This document shows positions 1 through 11,465 of a stretch of DNA of 11,465 bases, one piece after another. The DNA lies in UHGV virus genome UHGV-0140594; one strand, given 5' to 3'. A program made the position numbers and the translations under genes. The DNA comes from a virus. The first letter of the stretch is position 1, and each line of letters opens with the position of its first letter. A model generated the notes under the pieces. It did no database searches. It had not been told where the DNA came from and was given only the letters and a program-made list of their open reading frames with translations.

Positions 1-1023
1 TCGCAATGGGATGGATGTACGCCGCAGGATACCCAGCGCTATTTATGCGGCGTATGGGCAAAAGCACGCGCAGCGATCTCGCGTGCGGGTATTCATGTAT
101 TTGGGTTTCGGGTTGTTGAGCCTCACCATGACGGGACACCGCACTGGCATATGTTGCTTTTTATGCGTCCGCATGACGTGGACACGGTACGCGATATTCT
201 TTGCTATCACGCCAGAATTACCGATTCTGAAGAACTGCAATCTGAAAAGGCGCTGAAGGCGCGTTTTCATGTTGAAGCTATCGATCCCGCCAAAGGTTCG
301 GCCACGGGCTACATCGCGAAATACATTTCAAAAAATATTGATGGTTTTGCGCTGGATGGTGAGCATGACGAAGAAACCGGCGAAAACCTGCGTGATATGG
401 CTAAGTCCGTTTCTGCATGGGCTTCACGCTGGCGTATTCGTCAGTTTCAGCAGATTGGTGGTGCGCCGGTAACTGTCTGGCGTGAGCTGCGTCGGTTGCG
501 GGATCAGGTGCTGACCGATCGCAGAATGGATGCGGTTCTGGCCGCTGCTGATGTCGGGGACTGGGCTGCATATACCCAGGCGCAGGGCGGTGCACTGGTT
601 GCCCGCCGTGATCTGGTTGTTCGTCTGGCCTATGAAATTACGGAACAGGGCAACGAGTATGCAGAGGACGTGCAGCGCATACAGGGGGTTTATTCTCCTT
701 TGGTTCCTGATTCAGAAGTTTGCACCCGTCTGGTTAAGTGGCAAAAGGTTGCGAAGTTGGCCGAAGCGCCAGCGGAGGCGGGTTTTTCTGGCGGCAACGC
801 CGCCCCTTGGAGTTCTGTCAATAACTGTACGGAGGGGGGAACCCGCAGACGGTTAAAACTGGAATTACGCAGTCGGGGTTTTGATGGTTCTGATGAAGAA
901 ATAGCCATTCTCTTGCGGGGTAGTGGTTTGAGATTTGGTCAGGGCGCTCTGATTTACCGCAACGGGCGGCTTAAAGAGACTCAAAACGAGCCATTGCAGG
1001 AACTGTGGCCGGGGTGGTTATAG
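1..1023 (+). CDS. A: Rolling-circle replication initiator endonuclease (P2 gpA family), 5'-truncated by the window edge
   Basis: Frame 1 is open from nt 1 with no stop until TAG at 1021-1023; the ORF track entry 151..1023 is only the part after an internal ATG. Translation contains EPHHDGTPHWHMLLF (metal-binding motif of this initiator family) and GYIAKYISKN (paired catalytic tyrosines). Confidence 0.85.
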   Translation, partial: SQWDGCTPQDTQRYLCGVWAKARAAISRAGIHVFGFRVVEPHHDGTPHWHMLLFMRPHDVDTVRDILCYHARITDSEELQSEKALKARFHVEAIDPAKGSATGYIAKYISKNIDGFALDGEHDEETGENLRDMAKSVSAWASRWRIRQFQQIGGAPVTVWRELRRLRDQVLTDRRMDAVLAAADVGDWAAYTQAQGGALVARRDLVVRLAYEITEQGNEYAEDVQRIQGVYSPLVPDSEVCTRLVKWQKVAKLAEAPAEAGFSGGNAAPWSSVNNCTEGGTRRRLKLELRSRGFDGSDEEIAILLRGSGLRFGQGALIYRNGRLKETQNEPLQELWPGWL

Positions 1024-1100
1024 CGGTGTAATTATGTGAAAGGCATTCATTTGTCAGTAGATGGCAGGAAATTAAATTTCACAATTCGTGCTTTAAGGTG

Positions 1101-1120
1101 TACTGTATGTATATCCAGTT
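1101..1120 (+). promoter_or_regulatory. Candidate LexA (SOS) operator TACTGTATGTATATCCAGTT
   Basis: CTG-N10-CAG core with AT-rich spacer; 17 of 20 positions match the E. coli LexA consensus TACTGTATATATATACAGTA. It sits 22 bp upstream of the ATG at 1143 in an AT-rich 119-bp intergenic region. Confidence 0.55.
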
Positions 1121-1142
1121 ATTTATTGCTTGTGGGGGCTAA

Positions 1143-1349
1143 ATGGATCTTTTGGAGGCGTCGGCACAGCTGGAACGCATTGAGTTATTGGCCAAAATTG
1201 CCCATGTTTACGAAAGTAACCAGAGAGAAAAAACAATCGCTTTGGCCTGGATTGGAGAGCTTGCGGGAGAGGTTCGCGAAATAGTTAAAAAGGAAGGGCA
1301 ACGCCCCCAGAATGGGGGCATTTCAGGCGGCGGGAGTCGCTTTCAGTAG
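1143..1349 (+). CDS. Small hypothetical protein (68 aa) preceded by the SOS box; possible Tum-like antirepressor or moron (function unknown)
   Basis: ATG at 1143 with GGGGG Shine-Dalgarno 4 nt upstream (tgtgggggctaaATG). Predicted helical N-terminal part and Gly-rich tail (GGISGGGSRFQ). Its 3' end overlaps the 3' end of the convergent ogr-like gene by 27 nt. Confidence 0.45.
   Translation: MDLLEASAQLERIELLAKIAHVYESNQREKTIALAWIGELAGEVREIVKKEGQRPQNGGISGGGSRFQ
1303..1319. terminator. GC-rich hairpin GCCCCCA-GAA-TGGGGGC at the convergent gene ends (weak terminator candidate)
   Basis: Perfect 7-bp stem with 3-nt loop, immediately past the ogr-like stop on the minus strand. U-tracts are poor on both strands (AUUUC on plus; U5 lies 11 nt away on minus). 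Confidence 0.3.
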
Positions 1350-1592
1350 GTCTAATGCCATCTGGCGCTGATCGGGTGAAAGTGCATTCAGTATTTTTTG
1401 CACCATCGCATCACCCGTTTTAGCGCTGGGGCTGAGAGTGTGGGAGAACGTCAGATTCATAACAAACGTGTGGCCACACTCAACATCTGAACAGGCACAG
1501 TAAATATCGGCAATCTGCCGGTGCTTCCTGTTTGTTTTACGAATAACAGCCTTTGAGCCGCATTCCGGGCATTCGATTTTCAGAACTCGCAT
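1323..1592 (-). CDS. ogr: Ogr/Delta/B-family zinc-finger late-gene transcription activator
   Basis: MRVLKIECPECG...CACSDVEC gives C-x2-C-x22-C-x4-C, the zinc-finger spacing of P2 Ogr / 186 B / P4 Delta. ATG at 1592 has GGAG 8 nt upstream. The ORF track extends it to an ATG at 1646 that overlaps the portal stop (ATGA); 1592 is preferred because the family places the first Cys within about 8 residues of the N-terminus. Confidence 0.8.
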   Translation of the reverse strand: MRVLKIECPECGSKAVIRKTNRKHRQIADIYCACSDVECGHTFVMNLTFSHTLSPSAKTGDAMVQKILNALSPDQRQMALDLLKATPAA

Positions 1593-1642
1593 ATTCCATG
1601 CTCCAGCTGTTAAATGATGCCTGGATTTTAGCCTCTTTCGCC

Positions 1643-2704
1643 TCATGCCGCACCCTTATCCGTTGATTCTGTGTAACTTAAATCAAAGTTAAGGTGTAGC
1701 CTTTCCGGTATTTCAGGATCGTTGTTAACGGCCAGCATGAAACGGCGCTGGATGGGGGCAATTTCGCTTTTCTTGTAAATGCGTTCAGCCTTTTCAACAT
1801 CCCCCAGTCCGGCAGTGTTCTGCGGGCCAATACCGGCGAGGCCGGCAGGGAAACGGTGCGCGTTCAGAATGTCCTGGGCGCTGATGTTTTTGATGTTGGC
1901 AAATTCATCCTTCGCGGAAATATCCCCCATTTCAATGAATTTGATGGCGTCGCCGTCTCCACCGGGAATGTTTACAAGGATGGTGGAGAAGTTACCGATC
2001 CCTTTGCTGTCACGCAGCTGCTGTTCAATTTCTTCCTCCATTTCGTCCGTCATGCTGGGATCGCGAGTATAAAGAATACCGCCTGTGTGCGCACCGTTGT
2101 GGTAATAGCGGCGTCGGAAAATGACCGCTTCACTGTTAAGTAACGCGGAATGCACACCGCCGATGTAGTCCGGCAGTCCGTAGATATGCTGTTGTGGGTC
2201 ATACATTTTGATGAAGATAATATCTTCTTCTGGCCATACCTGCGGTTCTCCTTCCTGTAACACCACGTAGTCACCGGGCTTATCCAGGGCGTTATCTCTG
2301 ACTTTGCGGCGGCGAATATACAGACCGGGCAAGGGTTCAAGTGCGATCACGTCGCCCCAGCCGTTACGAATTTTGGCAATCGCAATATCCCCAAAGGTTA
2401 TATAGTCAAACGCTGCCGCTTCCAGCTGGTCGTGAATAAGCCCGCCCCCCAGGTAGTCTGAAACAATCATGTTTTTGCGGGCGTGAATGATGCCGCCGTG
2501 CTGACCGTTAAGATTAATCAGCTGTGCGAGTGCCAGCCGGTCAATCGGCTGGGTGAAGTGATCGGCGGCATTGTCGTACCAGATATCACGGTAATCTGTG
2601 CCGGTAGTCAGAACCGGTTCAGGTTTGCCGAATGTGATAATGCTCATCTTTTTTGATTTGTCGCCGCGCTGGTCGCGCTTAACAAAGCGTTTCTTTTTAC
2701 TCAT
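1643..2704 (-). CDS. Q: Portal protein (P2 gpQ-like)
   Basis: 353 aa, directly downstream of the terminase ATPase gene on the same strand with an ATGA stop/start overlap at 2701-2704; AAGGAAAGAGG ribosome-binding site upstream. Size and position match P2 Q; sequence similarity is recalled, not computed. Confidence 0.8.
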   Translation of the reverse strand: MSKKKRFVKRDQRGDKSKKMSIITFGKPEPVLTTGTDYRDIWYDNAADHFTQPIDRLALAQLINLNGQHGGIIHARKNMIVSDYLGGGLIHDQLEAAAFDYITFGDIAIAKIRNGWGDVIALEPLPGLYIRRRKVRDNALDKPGDYVVLQEGEPQVWPEEDIIFIKMYDPQQHIYGLPDYIGGVHSALLNSEAVIFRRRYYHNGAHTGGILYTRDPSMTDEMEEEIEQQLRDSKGIGNFSTILVNIPGGDGDAIKFIEMGDISAKDEFANIKNISAQDILNAHRFPAGLAGIGPQNTAGLGDVEKAERIYKKSEIAPIQRRFMLAVNNDPEIPERLHLNFDLSYTESTDKGAA

Positions 2705-4239
2705 GCTGCCTCTTTCCTTACACCCCAGCGGGATTTAGGTTTGTTTTCATAGTTAAGGGGTTCGTTATGCAGACCGTGGGTAATCGCCCAGAACGCCTCC
2801 GCGTGGCCAGTATCCTGGCTGCGGTCAGCGACAAACGTCATGGCGTTGCCGCTTTGTGTGGTGGTTCGGCGCACAGACATAAAGCTGGCCGCGATCTCTT
2901 TCAGGTTTTTATCCCACTCAATACGTTGGCTTTCCACCACGTCCACCGCTTTCAGCACCAGTTGATTTTTGGTGTTCAGGTCGTAACGAATAGGGACGGC
3001 CACGCGCATGGCAAAATGCTGAATGTTGTCAAAAACACCCTGGCCAATGCCGGTAACGTCTACTCCCAGATAAGTGAAGTTGTATTTTTTGAACAACTGC
3101 TCGATCTGTTTTGCCTGATACCGGAAGTTCATGCCTTTCCAGTAAATCACCTTCAGAACGCGGAACTTCTCCACGGCGAGCATCGGCGGGGCGATGATGA
3201 CAAAACAAGACAAATCACCGCTGCGAGCCGGGTCAAAGCCGCCCCAAACTGGCCTGTCACCGAATGGCCGCGCTGCATCAGGGTTGTGATCCTGCCAGGT
3301 GTCGATTTCAACGCCGCAGGCTTCCAGGTCAGAAAAGCTGAAAACGGAATCTTTGCTGTCAACGAACACGCACATATAGAGCATGTTAAAAGTGGCGTCG
3401 TTGTAGCGGTTGCGAAGTTTCTCGATGTTCGCCAGGTTGAAACCGCCCGCAATGGCATCTTCCATCGTAATGACGTAGCGCCATTGCCCATCCGGGCAGA
3501 GTCGCCCGCCGTCACGCATGTCGTTAAAGGACGGAAACTTAATGGCCGCACGTTTTTTACTGCCCTGTTTCCACTCATCGCCCGTCCAGAACGGGTAAGC
3601 CTGGTGCGTTTTTGCCGATGGCGTTGAAAAATAGGTGGTGCGCCACTTGTCATGTGTGGCCATTGCGCTGGCCACTTCGTTAAGTTTTGCAAAGTTTGGC
3701 ACCCAGAAATATTCGTCACAGTACAGGTGGCCACTGTAGGACTGGGCGGTGTTTTTGTTGGTGGAGAGAAAACGCAGTTCTGCGCCGTTGCTTAAGCGGA
3801 TCGGGTTGCCGGTTAGCGTAATACCGAAATACTGCTCTGCAATATTCACGATGTAAGACCGGAACACTTCAGCCTGTGCCTTTGACGCTGACAGAAAGAT
3901 TTGCGGATCGCCGGTCATCACCGCGTTTTCAAACGCTTCAAACGCAAAATACCAGGTCGCACCGATCTGGCGGCTTTTCAGGATGTTCCTGACAAGCTGG
4001 CCAATGTTATTGCGCAGGTGTTTCTGATATTCAAAAAGATGTTCTTCAGCCCATGCGTCAAAGTCCTCCTGCGTCAGCGACGTAATATCGTTTTTCTTGT
4101 ATTTCCGTTTGCTGCGTGATTCGTCGTCATTGTTGTCCCGCGCAGCTGCTTGCCCGGAACTCTGACCGCTGGCCATTTTCTCTTTGTGTTTATTACTCTG
4201 CGCACGCAGTTTCGTGGCATGAGCAATGAGCATGTCCAT
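2701..4239 (-). CDS. P: Terminase large (ATPase) subunit, gpP-like, main body; N-terminal domain is encoded upstream in another frame
   Basis: 512-aa ORF with a Walker-A-like KSRQIGAT motif and acidic motifs typical of terminase ATPase/nuclease; P2-like position upstream of the portal gene. Its reading frame stays open upstream of the annotated Met to 4281. Confidence 0.85.
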   Translation of the reverse strand: MDMLIAHATKLRAQSNKHKEKMASGQSSGQAAARDNNDDESRSKRKYKKNDITSLTQEDFDAWAEEHLFEYQKHLRNNIGQLVRNILKSRQIGATWYFAFEAFENAVMTGDPQIFLSASKAQAEVFRSYIVNIAEQYFGITLTGNPIRLSNGAELRFLSTNKNTAQSYSGHLYCDEYFWVPNFAKLNEVASAMATHDKWRTTYFSTPSAKTHQAYPFWTGDEWKQGSKKRAAIKFPSFNDMRDGGRLCPDGQWRYVITMEDAIAGGFNLANIEKLRNRYNDATFNMLYMCVFVDSKDSVFSFSDLEACGVEIDTWQDHNPDAARPFGDRPVWGGFDPARSGDLSCFVIIAPPMLAVEKFRVLKVIYWKGMNFRYQAKQIEQLFKKYNFTYLGVDVTGIGQGVFDNIQHFAMRVAVPIRYDLNTKNQLVLKAVDVVESQRIEWDKNLKEIAASFMSVRRTTTQSGNAMTFVADRSQDTGHAEAFWAITHGLHNEPLNYENKPKSRWGVRKEAA

Positions 4240-4244
4240 TTCTT

Positions 4245-4439
4245 TCAGGTCGAGATCGGTTTTGTTATCGCGGCTGTGCTTTCAAAACTGAGCAAATCCG
4301 CCCAGCTGTATTTCTCCGCCCAGTAGTAAACGATCCGCGCATTCGGCAGATTTAATTCAGATGCGATTTCCTTTGGCGTATAGCGGCGCAGATAAAGTGC
4401 GCGAACAACGCCTTTTAATTCTTCAGAGTATTTAGCCAT
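4245..4439 (-). CDS. P: Terminase large subunit N-terminal helix-turn-helix segment (gpP N-terminal-like), in a different frame from the ATPase body
   Basis: 64-aa ORF ...VVRALYLRRYTPKEIASELNLPNARIVYYWAEKYSW... resembles the N-terminal DNA-binding domain of gpP-type terminases. It ends at TGA 4245-4247, only 5 nt before the Met of the 512-aa ORF, and the two frames overlap open across 4248-4281. Confidence 0.6.
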   Translation of the reverse strand: MAKYSEELKGVVRALYLRRYTPKEIASELNLPNARIVYYWAEKYSWADLLSFESTAAITKPIST

Positions 4440-4493
4440 GCGGATAATTATGCCGTGGCTGTGATGAAAAAACGGTGGTGTTAATTCGTGTCT

Positions 4494-4518
4494 GTTCGGT
4501 AAAGCGTTATAACCGAAC
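4494..4518. promoter_or_regulatory. Perfect inverted repeat GTTCGGT-N11-ACCGAAC in the divergent late promoter region; candidate activator binding site
   Basis: 7-bp perfect dyad centred near 4506 in the 161-bp gap between the leftward terminase-portal operon and the rightward scaffold-capsid operon, roughly 55 bp from plausible -10 elements on either side. The P2-type TGT-N12-ACA motif itself is absent. Confidence 0.4.
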
Positions 4519-4600
4519 TGTTCAGAATAAAGCGTAATGCGGTGGTGGTTTTATTTGGCAATAATTGGTTTGCAGCGTCAGGGAGTGGAACAGGGGGGAT

Positions 4601-5404
4601 ATGTCACATTTAAAAACTGACTGGCTGTGTGTTGCTACTGAAGGGGATACCGTTGATGGCAGGGTAATTAAACGGCAGTGGATCATTGATATGGGGGAAA
4701 CCTATGACTATAGCCACTATGTCGCTTTAATCTGGCCAGAACATGAGGATGATTGCGGGAATTTTGGTGAAGTGCTGGAAGCCACCTGGAATGATGGTGA
4801 AGATGGACTGGCACGGTTATATGTCAGCCTTTGCCCGAATATGCGTCTGATTTTCGCAAATCATGAAGATCAGCTTTTGTTCTTCTCCATTGAGCCGGAA
4901 GAAAACTGGCGCGGTAGCGGGCGTACTTACCTGAAAGGGCTGGCGGTAACAGATACACCTGCCAGCGTTGGCACCACACGGCTGCGCTTTAGTAGTCGGC
5001 GCAATAAATTAACAAAGCAGGGATATTACAGCTGTGTAATTTCCCGCGACGGAAAAATTAAACAGGAAGCAAGAATGAAGAACTGGCAGAAACTGTTTGG
5101 TATTAAGCCAAAGTTTGAAGATGAAACGCCGCAGGATAATCCTGCTCCGGATGAAGATAAATTACAGGCGCTTGCCAATGTGGTGAACGATCTGGAAGCG
5201 CGAGTGGCGAAAATTGAAACTCAACTGAATGACGTTCAGGGTGATGTTGACACAATTGCTGAAGTGGTGGATACGCAGGAATTTGCGGCAATTCGCGGTA
5301 ATGCAAAAGAAATCGTAACCCGCTTTAACGAACTGGGTAATAAAAACACCCGTACACCGGGGCGTACTATAAAAGATAAAGCCGGGAAATTTAATTTCCT
5401 GTAA
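4601..5404 (+). CDS. O: Capsid scaffolding protein (P2 gpO-like)
   Basis: EGDTVDGRVI and YLKGLAVTDTPAS correspond to conserved gpO motifs. ATG at 4601 is preceded by AGGGGGG; the ORF track start at 4565 is a TTG with no better ribosome-binding site. Confidence 0.85.
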   Translation: MSHLKTDWLCVATEGDTVDGRVIKRQWIIDMGETYDYSHYVALIWPEHEDDCGNFGEVLEATWNDGEDGLARLYVSLCPNMRLIFANHEDQLLFFSIEPEENWRGSGRTYLKGLAVTDTPASVGTTRLRFSSRRNKLTKQGYYSCVISRDGKIKQEARMKNWQKLFGIKPKFEDETPQDNPAPDEDKLQALANVVNDLEARVAKIETQLNDVQGDVDTIAEVVDTQEFAAIRGNAKEIVTRFNELGNKNTRTPGRTIKDKAGKFNFL

Positions 5405-5466
5405 TTCGCTTTATTGCTAATTAGCCCAGAATATATTTTTAAATCGCTTAATTGCGAGGGAGTTTT

Positions 5467-6489
5467 ATGCACCTTAATAATCGTGCGCGGGATTTACTGG
5501 ATAAATATTCGGCGGGGATGGCGCAGCAGTTTGGTGCGCGTGATACCAGTCGATATTTTTCCCTGAATGACCCGCAGGAAAATGCGCTGCGTCTTGCGTT
5601 GCTGGAGTCCGTCGAGTTCCTGAACATGATCACCTGTCTGGATGTTGACCAGCTGAGTGGCCAGGTGATCTCTGTCGGTTCCTCTGTGCTGCATACCGGC
5701 CGCAGCGAAAATGGCCGTTTCATTCGTCAGGTAGGCGTTGACGGTAATGACTATTCCCTGGTTGAAACAGACAGCTGTGCCGCGTTGCGCTGGGATCTGC
5801 TTTCTGTCTGGGCAAACGCCGGTAAGGACGAAAACGAGTTTTACAACCTGGTACAGGCATTCACCACGCAGGCTTTTGCGCTGGATATGTTGCGCATTGG
5901 TTTTAACGGTAAAAGTCGCGCGAAAACCACTGATCCGGAAACTAACCCGAACGGCGAGGATGTGAACGTTGGCTGGCATGAGCGTATGAAAACGCTGCTG
6001 GGCGGCAATCAGATTATGACGGATGCCGTGGTGCTTGATGAGGCCGGGGATTACAAATCACTGGATGCAATGGCGTCCGATCTGATTAACGCCAAAATCC
6101 CGGCACAGTTCCGCAATGATCCGCGTCTGGTTGTTCTGGTTGGTGCCGATCTGGTCGCAGCTGAACAATACCGACTGTATCAGGCAGCAGACCGTCCGAC
6201 TGAAAAAATCGCGGCGCAGATGCTGGGAAGCACCATTGCCGGCCGTCCGGCTATTATCCCGCCGTTTATGCCGGGTAAACGCATGGTGGTTACGCCGCTT
6301 TCTAACCTGCACATCTACACCCAGCGCAATACCCGTATGCGTAAGGCGGAGTTTGTTGAAGATCGTAAGCAGTTCGAAAACAAATACCTGCGCAATGAAG
6401 GTTACGCGGTGGAAGTGCCGGAGCTGTATGCGGCTATTGATGAATCCGCTGTGACAATCGGCAAAGTCTCCGAACCGGTGGAGGGTTGA
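5467..6489 (+). CDS. N: Major capsid protein (P2 gpN-like)
   Basis: Motifs FNGKSRAKTTD, VGWHERMK, GDYKSLDAM and DPRLVVLVG parallel P2 gpN. ATG at 5467 has a GAGGGAG ribosome-binding site; the ORF track start at 5452 is a TTG. Confidence 0.9.
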   Translation: MHLNNRARDLLDKYSAGMAQQFGARDTSRYFSLNDPQENALRLALLESVEFLNMITCLDVDQLSGQVISVGSSVLHTGRSENGRFIRQVGVDGNDYSLVETDSCAALRWDLLSVWANAGKDENEFYNLVQAFTTQAFALDMLRIGFNGKSRAKTTDPETNPNGEDVNVGWHERMKTLLGGNQIMTDAVVLDEAGDYKSLDAMASDLINAKIPAQFRNDPRLVVLVGADLVAAEQYRLYQAADRPTEKIAAQMLGSTIAGRPAIIPPFMPGKRMVVTPLSNLHIYTQRNTRMRKAEFVEDRKQFENKYLRNEGYAVEVPELYAAIDESAVTIGKVSEPVEG

Positions 6490-6492
6490 TAA

Positions 6493-7194
6493 ATGGCACT
6501 TTCCCCCGCGCAGCGTCACAGCCAGCGTATTGCGATGGAACAAAAGCTGAAGCGCAGCCAGGCACTGGAAACCACGGAAAGTATGCACTTGCTGGTCAGG
6601 GCGCTGGAAACGGATGTGGAATATATTCGAAGTCTGCCTACCATCGCCGATCGCGTCGAGTACAAACGCAATGTGCTGTTGCCGCGCTGGGTTCCCACTG
6701 TGGAAGCCTATCTGGAGAGTGGCCAGGAGTATGCAAATCCGGTTTTTGCCTGGTGTGTTATCTGGCTGTTTGACGTGGGCGATCTGGATAAGGCGCTGGA
6801 CTGGGCTGACATTGCTATCAGCCAGCAGCAGGCAACCCCGGATCGGTTACGCAGCAATTTTCCCACTTTCGTGGCGGATACGATGCTGGCATGGGCGCAG
6901 GAAACCGCAGGGCGCGGGGAAAGTGTGGAGCCTTATTTCACCCGCACGTTTGAGCGGGTGGCAAACACCTGGCGACTGCATGAGCAGGTGACGGCCAAAT
7001 GGTTCAAGTTTGCCGGTCAGGAGTTGCTACGCAATGACGATGGCCAGAAAACGGCGGCGGGCGTGGATGATATTGAAACGCTGGAAAAAGCCGATCAGCT
7101 GCTGGCTATTGCAGAAAAACACTACTCAAAAATTGGCGTCAGAACGGCGCGGCAGACAATTGCCGCCCGTATCCGAAAACTGACTCAAGGGTAA
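6493..7194 (+). CDS. M: Terminase small (endonuclease) subunit, P2 gpM-like
   Basis: N-terminal SPAQRH and LLPRWVPTV / WLFDVGDLDKALDWA blocks resemble gpM; GGAGGG ribosome-binding site 8 nt upstream; sits in the P2 position after the capsid gene. Confidence 0.8.
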   Translation: MALSPAQRHSQRIAMEQKLKRSQALETTESMHLLVRALETDVEYIRSLPTIADRVEYKRNVLLPRWVPTVEAYLESGQEYANPVFAWCVIWLFDVGDLDKALDWADIAISQQQATPDRLRSNFPTFVADTMLAWAQETAGRGESVEPYFTRTFERVANTWRLHEQVTAKWFKFAGQELLRNDDGQKTAAGVDDIETLEKADQLLAIAEKHYSKIGVRTARQTIAARIRKLTQG

Positions 7195-7239
7195 AGACTA
7201 CCGCAAGCCAGGCGGACGCGGTGGAGGGCAGAACACCTT

Positions 7240-7743
7240 GTGTGTAACTGCGCCGTGGAAACCGGCCAGTCCGCCTTTTTCGGGGGATTTATGTTTAGCG
7301 GAAAGCCGCTGGATTATCAGGATGAACCGCTGACCAATAACGGATTCTGGCCAGATCTGAATCTGAAGGATTTTCAAGCGCAGCGGTCACTACCGCCAGA
7401 TATTGACGCTGACACCATCAGCCAGGCGTTGCTTGCAGCGGTGGCGGAGGTGAATGCGGAACTGGAAAACGTGGAGTCCAGTTGGATAGCGAAAGGCTAC
7501 ACGCTGGCGGCAGAGGTACCAGGTGTAAAAATGGGCGGACTGAACAGCCTGTGCGCCCAGTATATGAAGGCCGTTTTTGCTAGGGCAAAAGCGGATCTGC
7601 TGGGGGAGTTCGCCACTATCGGGCGGCGCGATACTCATCCGGGACAGGAAAGTATGGAAACCCGAGCGGGGTTACTGGCTGAAGCATCGGTGGTGATCCG
7701 CCGTATGAAAGGGCTGAAACGGGCAACGGTGAAAAAAGTATGA
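7240..7743 (+). CDS. L: Head completion/stabilisation protein (P2 gpL-like)
   Basis: Position after the small terminase gene; size about 167 aa; F-W-P-D-L and NAELENV blocks. Start is uncertain: GTG at 7240 (GGAGGG 11 nt upstream) or ATG at 7291 (GGGGGA upstream). Confidence 0.65.
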   Translation: MCNCAVETGQSAFFGGFMFSGKPLDYQDEPLTNNGFWPDLNLKDFQAQRSLPPDIDADTISQALLAAVAEVNAELENVESSWIAKGYTLAAEVPGVKMGGLNSLCAQYMKAVFARAKADLLGEFATIGRRDTHPGQESMETRAGLLAEASVVIRRMKGLKRATVKKV

Positions 7744-8246
7744 GCCAGACGCAGATCCAAAGCCTGACCACATTTTTTAAAGATAACGTCCCGCCCCGTG
7801 CGATGCAGTCATTTGACAGTGTGCTGGATGAGATGAAGTTCATCCCTGCGGCGAAGGATTACGGGCTGGGACAATATCGCCAGGCGGTTATCCGATATGA
7901 CGCGGTTCTGAGCTGGGAGCGTTTCCCGTATCGCCTTTGCCCGCCGCAGTTGCTTATGTCCTTACTGGCTGCGTGGCTGGATGATGCTGACAGGGAACTA
8001 CTGGATGAAGTGGGGCTGAGTGAAGCTGAACCTGACTGGGATGTGTCGGTGGAGGATGAGGAAGTGGCCACTGTGGTGCTGACTGTTCCGATGGTAGAAG
8101 AACTGGTGATCAGGCAGGACGAAAACGGGGCTATTCCGTGGCGGGGTGAGCGCTGGTCACTGGTTGAGCCTGAAATCTGGACGGCACTGACCGCCAGTAT
8201 TTACAGCGTGGATGAGGCCGGTGCGCCGGTGGGGGATAGCGAATGA
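7740..8246 (+). CDS. Hypothetical acidic virion protein (168 aa); possible tail-completion (gpR-like) or head-tail joining protein
   Basis: ATGA overlap with the upstream stop suggests translational coupling; strongly acidic; position between head completion and the morphogenesis gene. The functional assignment is positional only. Confidence 0.5.
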   Translation: MSQTQIQSLTTFFKDNVPPRAMQSFDSVLDEMKFIPAAKDYGLGQYRQAVIRYDAVLSWERFPYRLCPPQLLMSLLAAWLDDADRELLDEVGLSEAEPDWDVSVEDEEVATVVLTVPMVEELVIRQDENGAIPWRGERWSLVEPEIWTALTASIYSVDEAGAPVGDSE

Positions 8247-8950
8247 TTGCCGGTGGCGAGCTGAATAAAAAACAGCTGGCCGAATTGCGCAAGGCACTGG
8301 CCAGCATGGAGCTGCCGCCGAGAAAACGGCAGCGTCTGATCTGGCGTCTGGCCAAATATGGCGTGATTGCTGCGGCAAAGCGGCATGTGCGCAATCAGGA
8401 ATCCCCGGATGGCCAGAAGTGGCCGGGACGTAAGACAAAACGCAAAGGGAAGATGCTGCGCAACCTGCCAAAGCTGCTGCATATCCGTGAAATGCCAGAA
8501 ATTCAGGCTGTGCGGATCTATTTACAGGGCGGTGGATACCGGAACGGGGAAGCGCCGGTACCAGCCGGAACGGTGGGGTACGCGCAACAAAACGGAATGC
8601 GCGTAAAGGTCAGCCGCAGTAATCAGCCACGGAAGGCAGAGGCCGGGAAAATGGCGACGCCTGCCCAGGCCAAAAAATTACGGGCGCTGGGGTACCGGGT
8701 GAAAACCGGTAAGAGATGGAAAAAGCCCACACAGGGCGAAATCACCAAAACGATGCCATACAGCCAGGCGGGGCTGCTGATTCGAAAACTCAGTAATAAA
8801 GCCGTGAAAACCAGCAGGACAGTGGATCTTCCTGCTCGTGTGTTTCTGGGCATGAATGATGATGAATTTGACAAGGCGCTGGCGCGTCAGCTTCAGGCCA
8901 TAGGTTTTGGCTGGGATGTTAAGGCGCAGGATATTAAGGGGAAAGCATGA
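8243..8950 (+). CDS. Phage virion morphogenesis protein (P2 gpS / Mu G family) with an extra basic internal segment
   Basis: Contains the family-typical QESPDGQKW and ARVFLGMNDDE blocks; ATGA overlap upstream and GGGGGA ribosome-binding site. At 235 aa it is about 80 aa longer than typical members, the extra part being Lys/Arg-rich. Confidence 0.65.
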   Translation: MIAGGELNKKQLAELRKALASMELPPRKRQRLIWRLAKYGVIAAAKRHVRNQESPDGQKWPGRKTKRKGKMLRNLPKLLHIREMPEIQAVRIYLQGGGYRNGEAPVPAGTVGYAQQNGMRVKVSRSNQPRKAEAGKMATPAQAKKLRALGYRVKTGKRWKKPTQGEITKTMPYSQAGLLIRKLSNKAVKTSRTVDLPARVFLGMNDDEFDKALARQLQAIGFGWDVKAQDIKGKA

Positions 8951-10074
8951 CCTGGCCAATTGTGACGGTAAACCAGGTAAACCAGCTGATGGGCGAAACC
9001 AATGAGGTGGAACGCACACTGCTGTTTATCGGTACGGGTACCAAAAATGTGGGGAAAACGCTGGCGGTGAATGCCCAGAGTGATTTTGATTCACTGCTGG
9101 GCGAGGAAGCCAGCCCGCTCAAAAATGATGTTCTGGCTGCGCTGGCGAACGCTGGCCAGAACTGGTGGGGGTTCATTCACGTTCTGCCAGCTGACGCGGA
9201 GGCAGATGCCTGGGTGAAAGCGGTTCTGGCCGCGCAGGTGGTGTGCTCTGTGGAAGGCGTGGTGCTGTCTGACGATGTGACCGCTAAAGCGCAGGTAAAT
9301 CAGGCCGTGACGTTACGATCCACCCTGATTTCAAAGTATGGCCGCTGGGTGTGGTTTATCCTGGCCGCGCAGGGAATGCAGGACGAAGAAGCCCAGGCGG
9401 ATTATCTGGTACGCATGGCCACCCTTCAGGATGGCATTGCAGAAAAGGCAGTGCAGCTGGTTCCCCGCCTGTGGGGAAATGAACCGGGCGTGCTGGCTGG
9501 TCGCCTTTGTAGCCGTGCGGTAACCATTGCTGACAGTCCGGCGCGGGTTAAAACCGGTGCTCTGATGAATCTGGGCAGTGATGAGATGCCGGTTGATGGT
9601 ACCGGAGAAGTGCTGGAACTGGCCACACTTCAGGCGCTTGAAGCACAGCGTTTCAGTGTGCCGATGTGGTATCCGGATTATGACGGTTTTTACTGGGCAG
9701 ATGGCCGCACGCTGGATGTTGAGGGCGGCGATTATCAGTCGATTGAAACCCTGCGCGTTGCGGATAAAGCTGCCCGCCGTGTTCGTCTGCTGGCTATCAG
9801 CAAAATCGCGGATCGCTCGCTGAACAGCACGCCGGGAAGTATCGCCGCACATCAGACATTGTTTGCCCGTCCATTGCGTGAAATGTCCACTGCGGCCAGC
9901 ATTAACGGTGTGTCATTTCCGGGTGAAGTGAAGCCGCCGCAGGATGGTGATGTGACCATTGTCTGGAAAAACAAAAAGGCGGTGGATATTTACATTGTGG
10001 TGCGCACCTGGGAAGTGCCGCTGCAAATCACCATCAGTCTGTTACTGGATGCGAGTCTGGAGGCCACAGCATGA
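8947..10074 (+). CDS. Structural protein of unknown family (375 aa); tail sheath-like candidate
   Basis: ATGA-coupled to the upstream gene, AAGGGGAAAG ribosome-binding site. The N-terminal beta-rich segment and the internal RLWGNEPG block resemble the WGxRT region of contractile sheath proteins. It is followed by a tube-sized protein. No P2 counterpart at this position. Confidence 0.4.
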   Translation: MTWPIVTVNQVNQLMGETNEVERTLLFIGTGTKNVGKTLAVNAQSDFDSLLGEEASPLKNDVLAALANAGQNWWGFIHVLPADAEADAWVKAVLAAQVVCSVEGVVLSDDVTAKAQVNQAVTLRSTLISKYGRWVWFILAAQGMQDEEAQADYLVRMATLQDGIAEKAVQLVPRLWGNEPGVLAGRLCSRAVTIADSPARVKTGALMNLGSDEMPVDGTGEVLELATLQALEAQRFSVPMWYPDYDGFYWADGRTLDVEGGDYQSIETLRVADKAARRVRLLAISKIADRSLNSTPGSIAAHQTLFARPLREMSTAASINGVSFPGEVKPPQDGDVTIVWKNKKAVDIYIVVRTWEVPLQITISLLLDASLEATA

Positions 10075-10526
10075 CCAAACGTATTTCGGGTATGTCGTTT
10101 GACACCTATATGGACGGCGATCTGATCCATATCGAGAAAATCACGCTCGATATTACGGATAACAGCGCTGCCGCCCAGACGCGTGGCGTCCCTGATGGGT
10201 ATGTGGATGGCGATGTTGCCGCTGAGGGGGAAATTGAAGTCAGTTCAAAAACACTTCAGGTGCTGACAGCCAAAGCCCGTGCAGCGGGTTCATTGCGTGG
10301 GCTTCCACCACTTGATTTTCTTTTCTATGCCAAAGCCAGTAGCGAAGAAATGAAGGTGGAGACGTTCGGCAATAAATTGCAGGTCAGCAACCTGCTGGAT
10401 ATTGATCCGAAAGGTGGCGGTGTGACCACGCACAAAATCAAATATTTCGTGACCAGTCCGAAATTCGTCAACATCAACGGTGTGCCGTATCTGGAAGCGG
10501 AAGCCACAGAAAACTTGATCGGATAA
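10071..10526 (+). CDS. Structural protein of unknown family (151 aa); tail tube-like candidate
   Basis: ATGA-coupled to the 375-aa gene, GGAGG ribosome-binding site; size and position are consistent with a tube protein partnered to a sheath. No diagnostic motif recognised. Confidence 0.3.
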   Translation: MTKRISGMSFDTYMDGDLIHIEKITLDITDNSAAAQTRGVPDGYVDGDVAAEGEIEVSSKTLQVLTAKARAAGSLRGLPPLDFLFYAKASSEEMKVETFGNKLQVSNLLDIDPKGGGVTTHKIKYFVTSPKFVNINGVPYLEAEATENLIG

Positions 10527-10535
10527 GGGGCAGGG

Positions 10536-10838
10536 ATGCAGGAACATGAAAAGAGCCTTTATTCACTGCTGATCATTGGCGCACTGATTGCCATCGGCAA
10601 TGTGCTGACCAGTAATGACCCAATCACGCCGCGCCTGTTTGCCGGTCGCGTGATCCTGGGCAGTCTGGTTTCAGTGGTGGCCGGGGCGGTACTAATTCAG
10701 ATCCCGGATGCCAGCCCGCTGGCCATTCAGGGGCTGGGGGCGGCGCTGGGGATTGCCGGTTATCAGGCGGTGGAAGTGTGGCTGCGCAGACGTGCAGCGG
10801 GAAAGCAGAACGGGAGCAAGACAAATGACCCTGAGTGA
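10536..10838 (+). CDS. Holin (three predicted transmembrane helices, charged C-terminus)
   Basis: 100 aa; hydrophobic stretches LYSLLIIGALIAIGNVL, GRVILGSLVSVVAGAVLI and LAIQGLGAALGIAGYQAV followed by a basic/polar tail (RRRAAGKQNGSK); lies immediately upstream of and overlapping the endolysin gene. Confidence 0.6.
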   Translation: MQEHEKSLYSLLIIGALIAIGNVLTSNDPITPRLFAGRVILGSLVSVVAGAVLIQIPDASPLAIQGLGAALGIAGYQAVEVWLRRRAAGKQNGSKTNDPE

Positions 10839-11166
10839 AAAACAGCAATTATTCACAGTCATGGTGGCCAGTCTGATCCACTGGGCAGAAGAACATGGCT
10901 ACAGACTGACGTTCGGTGAGGCTTACCGTACACCAGAACAGGCCGCGCTGAATGCGAAGAAAGGCAGCGGTATTTCTAACAGCCTGCACACCCAGCGGCT
11001 GGCGGTGGATTTCAATCTGTTCGTGAACGGTCAGTACAAAACCCGCACAGAAGATTATCTGCCACTGGGGGAATACTGGGAATCACTGGGTGGTGCCTGG
11101 GGCGGACGCTTTAAATCCAGACCGGATGGCAATCATTTCAGTCTGGAACATAACGGGGTGCGCTGA
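10825..11166 (+). CDS. Endolysin, peptidase M15 family (VanY / L-alanyl-D-glutamate peptidase-like)
   Basis: SLHTQRLAVDF ... GGAWGGRF ... DGNHFSLE matches the zinc-ligand H-x6-D ... H pattern and WGG block of small phage M15 peptidases. ATG at 10825 has a GGGAG ribosome-binding site; the longer ORF-track start at 10708 overlaps the holin and is rejected. Confidence 0.85.
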   Translation: MTLSEKQQLFTVMVASLIHWAEEHGYRLTFGEAYRTPEQAALNAKKGSGISNSLHTQRLAVDFNLFVNGQYKTRTEDYLPLGEYWESLGGAWGGRFKSRPDGNHFSLEHNGVR

Positions 11167-11465
11167 TGAGCAGCGGGCAGTGGCTGGTTGTGGTGGCGCT
11201 GGCGTTTGTCTGGGGCTGGCTAACCGCTGACTGGCGGCGTGATAGCTTAGAGCTGGCAATCAATACAGCGGCGCAGGTGGCCGGTAATGAATCGCGAAAA
11301 GCAATGCAGGGTATTGCCAGTGATTCGGCCAGAGCGCTGGAAGATAAACTGGAGGCGTTAAAAAATGTGGCACCGCGAGAGATACGCACGGAAATACTTA
11401 AGCCCGTTTTTACTAAGGAAGGTGCGAATAAGCAGGTCATTTCTTCCCAAGCTGACTCGCTGATT
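11166..11465 (+). CDS. Putative i-spanin (Rz-like), 3'-truncated by the window edge
   Basis: ATG at 11166 overlaps the endolysin stop (TGATG). N-terminal transmembrane segment WLVVVALAFVWGWL followed by a charged helical region; open to the window end. Not in the ORF track because no stop is reached. Confidence 0.45.
   Translation, partial: MSSGQWLVVVALAFVWGWLTADWRRDSLELAINTAAQVAGNESRKAMQGIASDSARALEDKLEALKNVAPREIRTEILKPVFTKEGANKQVISSQADSLI

Follow-up and report, generated by a model that had tools for sequence, protein, structure and literature searches.

In a P2-like (Peduoviridae) prophage of Escherichia coli, a 68-codon open reading frame (ORF) situated just after replication gene A probably encodes a LexA-repressed antirepressor of the Tum type, which lacks a DinI half and drives the SOS induction of a prophage with a 186-type repressor. 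This proposal is built from sequence comparison, namely from the strength, uniqueness and conservation of the operator, the promoter layout, homology to the N-terminus of Tum (Tum-N), selection on the ORF core, the type of the CI repressor, and the co-segregation of ORF and CI. A preliminary description of this DNA had offered three options for the 68-residue product: a minimal antirepressor, an SOS-induced moron or an anti-defence factor. The homology to one half of Tum, the p95-like promoter, the 186-type CI and the matching ORF and CI classes favour the first of these, and the evidence points away from the other two and towards an antirepressor.

The prophage and its relatives

The window, by which we mean the whole stretch of 11,465 nucleotides that was analysed (UHGV virus genome UHGV-0140594), carries the 3' part of gene A, a 119-bp spacer and the small ORF on the plus strand, followed by an ogr-like gene, the portal gene and the terminase gene on the minus strand (Table 1). 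Region 1000-1400 of the window was matched in 25 of 5,426 genomes, and it occurs at 99% identity or more in seven E. coli chromosomes, six of these at 100%. An identical complete prophage in E. coli XYEH3934 has the order int, CI, apl-like, cII, fil, ..., dam, A, small ORF, ogr, Q, P; with int, CI, apl, cII and fil arranged as in 186, this is a lysis-lysogeny switch of the 186 type. The nearest named phages are the Quadragintavirus ESSI2 phages, the flanks of which are about 95% identical. When phage records were searched by tblastn with the small ORF, one Salmonella contig only was returned; the ESSI2 phages, in which the ORF is a divergent allele (class 2, below), escaped this search. Literature searches on PSP3 TumA and on Quadragintavirus/ev040 found nothing useful.

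Two sets of relatives were unusual. Locus L013 (JAEWTL010000126.1) comes from a bin named 'MAG: Bacillota bacterium', has a small ORF that is 96% identical and an identical LexA box, and most likely represents an enterobacterial phage contig that was binned wrongly. In the Cronobacter loci L020 and L021 the small ORF is part of a rearranged array that contains two sets of P2-like head genes, both partial, with two portal genes and a truncated terminase; this looks like a degraded or tandem prophage.

Table 1. Features of the window and of related loci (window coordinates unless a locus is named)
Feature	Position	Strand	Basis or remark
Replication gene A, 3' part	151-1023	+	Pfam Phage_GPA, phrog_91; context
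-35 hexamer TTCACA, p95-like SOS promoter	1078-1083	+	Same hexamer as the annotated 186 p95 -35
-10 hexamer TACTGT, first six bases of the box	1101-1106	+	Putative, by homology to 186 p95
LexA operator (SOS box) TACTGTATGTATATCCAGTT	1101-1120	none	Near-consensus, conserved
Shine-Dalgarno-like G-run	1134-1138	+	4 nt before ATG
68-codon ORF	1143-1349	+	ATG start
Codons 1-45, Tum-N-like conserved core	1143-1277	+	Homology, selection, predicted helices
Codons 46-68 and stop, variable tail	1278-1349	+	Last ~15 residues disordered
Terminator-like G+C hairpins just downstream of ogr	1294-1319	-	Terminator scan
ogr/Delta-like zinc-finger gene, late activator homologue	1323-1646	-	Pfam PF04606, E 9e-20; RefSeq annotation
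Portal gene	1643-2704	-	
Large terminase gene	2701-4239	-	Head and tail genes after it
Junction cargo in relatives	L012 8998-10035; L022 9300-10340; L020 9286-10323; L027 9203-9934		
int-region cargo in relatives	L010 930-2663; L024 822-2408; L022 2057-2623; L011 980-1561		

A conserved LexA box on a putative p95-like promoter

The preliminary description reported a near-consensus LexA box 22 bp upstream of the small ORF, and both the sequence and the mismatch count bear this out. The site TACTGTATGTATATCCAGTT agrees with the consensus TACTGTATATATATACAGTA at 17 of 20 positions (three mismatches), with the CTG and CAG arms intact. No other site in the window has three or fewer mismatches, and none with so few arose in 200 dinucleotide shuffles. 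Scoring with a LexA matrix, which had been proposed as a check, gave the same picture. Using an approximate matrix compiled from 31 E. coli LexA sites, the heterology index of the box is 2.1, a better value than that of 27 of these 31 sites; the second-ranked site in the window has 9.9, and the best over 200 shuffled windows is 7.2. Across the 40-kb locus that holds the identical prophage, the box is the single site with an index below 7. The runner-up in the window, TACTGGATAAATATTCGGCG at 5495-5514 (index about 10), is close to where the major capsid gene starts and probably has no function. Another strong LexA-like palindrome, CACTGTATAAATAAACAGTG, with an index of 3.5, is found in ESSI2_ev040 (L008, 27170-27189) between the end of the class-2 CI gene and the start of int, and is missing from the window-type prophage.

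The box is conserved well beyond E. coli. Each of the 17 related loci has it, 14-24 nt ahead of the start codon; these loci represent at least eight genera (Escherichia, Salmonella, Citrobacter-like, Kluyvera, Buttiauxella, Enterobacter, Pectobacterium, Erwinia, Cronobacter). It is also present in 186 and PSP3. In the window, 22 nt separate the end of the box at 1120 from the ATG at 1143, and the G-run just before the ATG supplies the ribosome-binding site that had been described; relatives have GGAGG or GGGAGG at the same position. Over the 17 loci the outer arms TACTG/ACAGT are nearly invariant and the central bases vary, and a -35 hexamer reading TTCACA or TTTACA is found at matching spacing in most of them (TTCGCT in two; L018 is unclear). 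Near-invariant arms, a variable centre and a retained -35 together form the pattern that is expected for a selected operator on a homologous promoter. On this sequence evidence we regard 1101-1120 as a strong LexA box, not a chance match, to which LexA would bind.

The position of the box on the promoter resembles that in phage 186. In the 186 record the LexA site TACTGTATGTTTATACAGTA stands 18 nt ahead of the tum start, and its first six bases serve as the -10 hexamer of p95. The window reads TTCACA-17-TACTGT where the annotated p95 reads TTCACA-18-TACTGT, and PSP3 has the same layout as both. By analogy with p95, transcription would be expected to start near 1113, and LexA bound to a box that overlaps such a promoter would block initiation. 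A generic sigma-70 scan missed TTCACA-17-TACTGT because its -10 matches the consensus at just three of six positions. The promoter that the scan did propose, TTGTCA-16-TAAATT at 1051-1078, was rejected as the main promoter: its -10 varies in relatives, and TTCACA-17-TACTGT is kept.

The small ORF encodes a constrained core and a variable tail

The 68-codon ORF of the preliminary description is present at 1143-1349, and purifying selection on its core supports a real gene. Compared with relatives at dS 0.37-0.57, codons 1-45 have a dN/dS of 0.06-0.11, which indicates that the protein itself is under selection. For codons 46-68 the same relatives give 0.56-0.80. The core is under strong purifying selection and the tail evolves almost neutrally; in relatives of 60-66 residues the tail is missing or different. 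The ORF was found in every prophage of the lineage examined, where it is a constant core gene and the cargo varies; absence from related phages, which had been named as an observation that would count against it, is thus not what the relatives show.

AlphaFold2 modelled the 68-residue product with a mean pLDDT of 81 and placed helices at residues 3-21 and 27-53, the second of which extends eight residues beyond the 45-residue core; from residue 59 on, pLDDT is below 50. The core is therefore predicted by this model to be a two-helix hairpin. Comparison of the model with the PDB by Foldseek returned generic helical hairpins only, none at E ≤ 1e-3, and a PDB sequence search with the product gave no match. 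An overlapping 82-codon ORF at 1036-1284, which runs across the operator, had no credible family match and was taken as spurious.

The core resembles the antirepressor half of Tum

BLASTP aligned residues 4-41 of the product with residues 5-42 of 186 Tum (32% identity over 38 residues, E 1e-5). Profile comparison by hhalign of the window family with Tum N-termini gave a probability of 89% (E 2e-6) over 40 ungapped columns, and the two share the motif ER(I/V)E...(I/L)AL..I.E(I/L)A. Among the PHROGs the ORF falls in phrog_698 (E 4e-22), with weaker matches to phrog_8554 and phrog_1993, and residues 1-70 of Tum match the same three families (phrog_1993, 1.5e-23; phrog_8554, 3e-12; phrog_698, 6e-6). 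PSP3 TumA matches phrog_1993 at 3e-32; BLASTP of the window ORF against TumA produced no alignment. These matches indicate remote homology of the first 45 residues both to PSP3 TumA and to the N-terminal half of 186 Tum, its antirepressor part. The earlier remark that the product has no recognisable motif holds for Pfam and NCBIfam, neither of which gave a hit, but not for profile comparison with Tum.

Lemire et al. (2011, PMC3121763) describe Tum as a fusion of two halves, one an antirepressor and the other DinI. In PSP3 and Fels-2 the halves of tum are separate genes, and the upstream gene of PSP3 has antirepressor activity (PMC3121763); the PSP3 record annotates tumA with 'UV induction of prophage'. 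186 Tum matches NF007893 at residues 72-142. No DinI domain (PF06183 / NF007893) was found in the window ORF with Pfam and NCBIfam, and the annotation of the XYEH3934 prophage lists no DinI gene. The profile search against Tum and DinI that had been suggested earlier therefore came out in favour of Tum and against DinI, and the window ORF would correspond to the antirepressor half only.

A whole-library profile search, covering 1.8 billion representatives, recovered 77 clusters (at 50% identity), all of 36-112 residues, from which we conclude that the stand-alone form is widespread. Among the short proteins that this search returned there was no fusion of Tum with DinI at E ≤ 1e-3, which counts against the link to Tum. 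At NCBI the name 'Tum protein' is already given to many short Tum-N proteins (63-78 residues). The window subfamily is 'hypothetical' wherever it is named, phrog_698 is listed as of unknown function, and the NCBI pipeline leaves the gene uncalled in several identical E. coli RefSeq genomes.

ORF class follows the CI repressor

CI lies outside the window and was read in the 100%-identical prophages. It is 43-45% identical to 186 CI (E 5e-43) and has the same domains, PF07022 and PF16452, without an S24 peptidase domain. Given that this CI has no self-cleavage domain, SOS induction would need an antirepressor, as in 186.

We compared the ORF with other genes in 15 prophages of the lineage. Its sequences form two classes, class 1 beginning MDLLEASAQLERIELL... 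(n = 11) and class 2 beginning (M/V)QDLFLETIALQRIALF... (n = 4), and in 15 of 15 loci the ORF class equals the CI class. Under free assortment this would have a probability of 1/1365, an optimistic figure since the loci are mutually related. Identity of the ORF core tracks that of the immunity module (Spearman 0.80 with CI, 0.77 with Apl, 0.77 with Int) and not that of its neighbours or CII (A -0.04, Ogr 0.21, Q 0.05, CII 0.03). ESSI2_ev040 and the window prophage share 95-100% identity in A, Ogr, Q and CII but only 38-51% in CI, Apl, Int and the small ORF, and class-2 pairs were seen with three different backgrounds of gene A. If the ORF and the immunity module were functionally coupled, one would expect them to stay linked in this way over the roughly 5 kb of DNA of different relatedness that lies between them.

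The ORF and CI pair by class, without a one-to-one correspondence. One and the same class-2 ORF is found with CIs that share 45% identity (HTH 57-72%, C-terminal domain 37-44%); conversely, the ORF cores of two prophages whose CI is identical share 62% identity. The coexistence of near-identical class-2 hairpins with CIs that are alike mainly in the HTH could mean that the hairpin recognises the N-terminal domain of CI. We offer as a tentative extension, which we think somewhat doubtful as it stands, that the 45-residue hairpin is a complete, DinI-free antirepressor, that its class is swapped together with int-CI-apl, and that it recognises the DNA-binding N-terminal domain of CI.

The ogr-like neighbour and cargo sites

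The ogr-like gene, which did not appear in the preliminary description, converges on the small ORF, and their 3' ends overlap by 27 nt (1323-1349). We regard it as context, outside the SOS module. Here it follows immediately after the portal gene, whereas in P2 the gene is located near att. Its start is ambiguous: counted from an ATG that overlaps with the stop of the portal gene it has 107 codons, and as annotated in ESSI2_ev040 it has 89. The DNA that encodes the ORF tail also holds the ogr 3' end and a terminator-like hairpin. This element includes CCCCC-N5-GGGGG at 1305-1319 and, on the minus strand, GGGGGCGTTGCCC followed by a T-run. The 5-bp G:C stem is kept, with a varying loop, in the five relatives without a cargo insertion here, and the element at 1294-1319 presumably acts as a terminator.

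The junction of the ORF and ogr (window 1290-1349) is an insertion hotspot, at which relatives carry a DUF2806/Abi_alpha-like gene on the minus strand. In one relative a plus-strand gene for a 'phage abortive infection protein' lies downstream of the LexA-controlled ORF and could be co-transcribed with it, like orf97 in 186. A second hotspot is found around int, mostly between int and CI, with an AAA ATPase plus DUF4276, a TPR protein or a bPH_3/SHOCT protein, and a further gene lies between attL and int; the genes of the int region are probably defence-type morons. The preliminary description had likened the location of the ORF to that of the anti-phage cargo of P2. That likeness is apt for the DUF2806/Abi-like genes just downstream in relatives, but not for the ORF itself, a constant core gene: the right-end cargo of P2 (old, tin) consists of variable morons, whereas the small ORF is present in every related prophage examined and co-varies with the immunity module.

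Alternative explanations

The ORF might encode an SOS-induced protein with a target other than CI, such as a host-directed or anti-defence moron that shares its ancestry with Tum-N. This would agree with the lack of functional annotation (phrog_698, Pfam and NCBIfam alike), the cargo hotspot just downstream, the loose pairing of ORF and CI within classes, and the presence in the corresponding 186 operon of orf97, which blocks 186 infection. We nevertheless consider it unlikely: the ORF is constant in a lineage whose cargo is variable, its class goes with the immunity module and not with its neighbours, and with no other LexA box or self-cleaving repressor there is no alternative SOS induction route visible in this prophage. 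It is much less probable still that the LexA-controlled transcript acts as an RNA, running antisense into the ogr-like 3' end and tuning late timing, with the ORF incidental. The convergent, overlapping arrangement would suit such a role, and the terminator scan found no clear plus-strand terminator after the ORF. Against it stand the low dN/dS of codons 1-45 (0.06-0.11 at dS 0.37-0.57) and an Rfam search that matched no family, and in the cargo-bearing relatives the ORF no longer faces ogr, yet box and core are retained. In this particular phage the transcript may still have an antisense side-effect.

We also weighed whether the palindrome might resemble a LexA site by chance or be non-functional as an operator, for instance as part of a packaging or replication region. 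The P2/186 cohesive-end sequence GGCG[AT]GGCGGGGAAAGCA, sought with up to three mismatches, was found neither in the window (1-11465) nor in the prophage locus L006 (1-40401), so that cos could be nearby. With none of 200 shuffles reaching the score of the site, and with its conservation across genera, near-invariant arms, variable centre and similar distance to the start codon (14-24 nt), we give this explanation almost no weight.

Proposed mechanism and relation to known systems

These data allow us to propose how a LexA-repressed, Tum-type antirepressor would work in this prophage. In the lysogen, LexA on 1101-1120 would cover the -10 hexamer and the start site of the p95-like promoter and keep the 68-codon gene silent. 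Upon DNA damage, RecA-mediated cleavage of LexA would allow the promoter to fire and the small protein to be made. Its two-helix core would bind the 186-type CI, possibly through the HTH domain, and keep it off its operators; with CI blocked, the lytic promoter would open and lytic transcription start. We infer the binding of LexA, the binding of CI and the requirement of the protein for induction from the sequence comparisons and from what is known of Tum.

The closest parallel is 186 Tum, which is encoded at the same position just after gene A, has the p95 layout with a LexA box covering the -10, is homologous over its N-terminal ~40 residues, and has a cognate repressor of the same type (PF07022 plus PF16452). 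Unlike the 146-residue Tum, the 68-residue window product has no DinI-like C-terminal half; the ORF starts with ATG and not GTG, the identity is about 32%, and in place of a second gene like orf97 there is the convergent, overlapping ogr-like gene. PSP3 TumA, together with the split tum of Fels-2, provides the model for a stand-alone short protein (TumA has 60 residues) that is the antirepressor half, encoded behind a LexA box after gene A and annotated for UV induction. PSP3 differs in having a separate DinI-like tumB immediately downstream, of which the window phage has none, and the two proteins are linked through the phrog_1993, phrog_8554 and phrog_698 profiles only, pairwise BLASTP being silent. 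In their logic, GfoA and GftA of Gifsy/Fels-1 and AntC of N15 are also comparable, as small LexA-repressed antirepressors that act against non-self-cleaving repressors (PMC3121763), but these belong to lambdoid or N15-type phages with different repressors.

The system thus appears, from its sequence, to be that of 186 Tum and PSP3 TumA in a sister lineage of P2-like phages, and otherwise follows the known 186/PSP3 paradigm. What seems new is a divergent, unannotated subfamily, its lack of a DinI partner, and the overlap with a late-activator gene. The finding assigns a likely function, that of SOS trigger of prophage induction, to a small-protein family labelled 'hypothetical' or of 'unknown function' (phrog_698), and it suggests that Tum-type antirepressors of Enterobacterales commonly take the form of a hairpin only, without DinI. 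The co-segregation of ORF and CI classes would provide a cheap predictor of induction specificity among P2-like prophages. If the hairpin does recognise the N-terminal domain of CI and is exchanged with the immunity module, immunity and induction specificity would be a two-locus property, predicting which co-resident P2-like prophages cross-induce.
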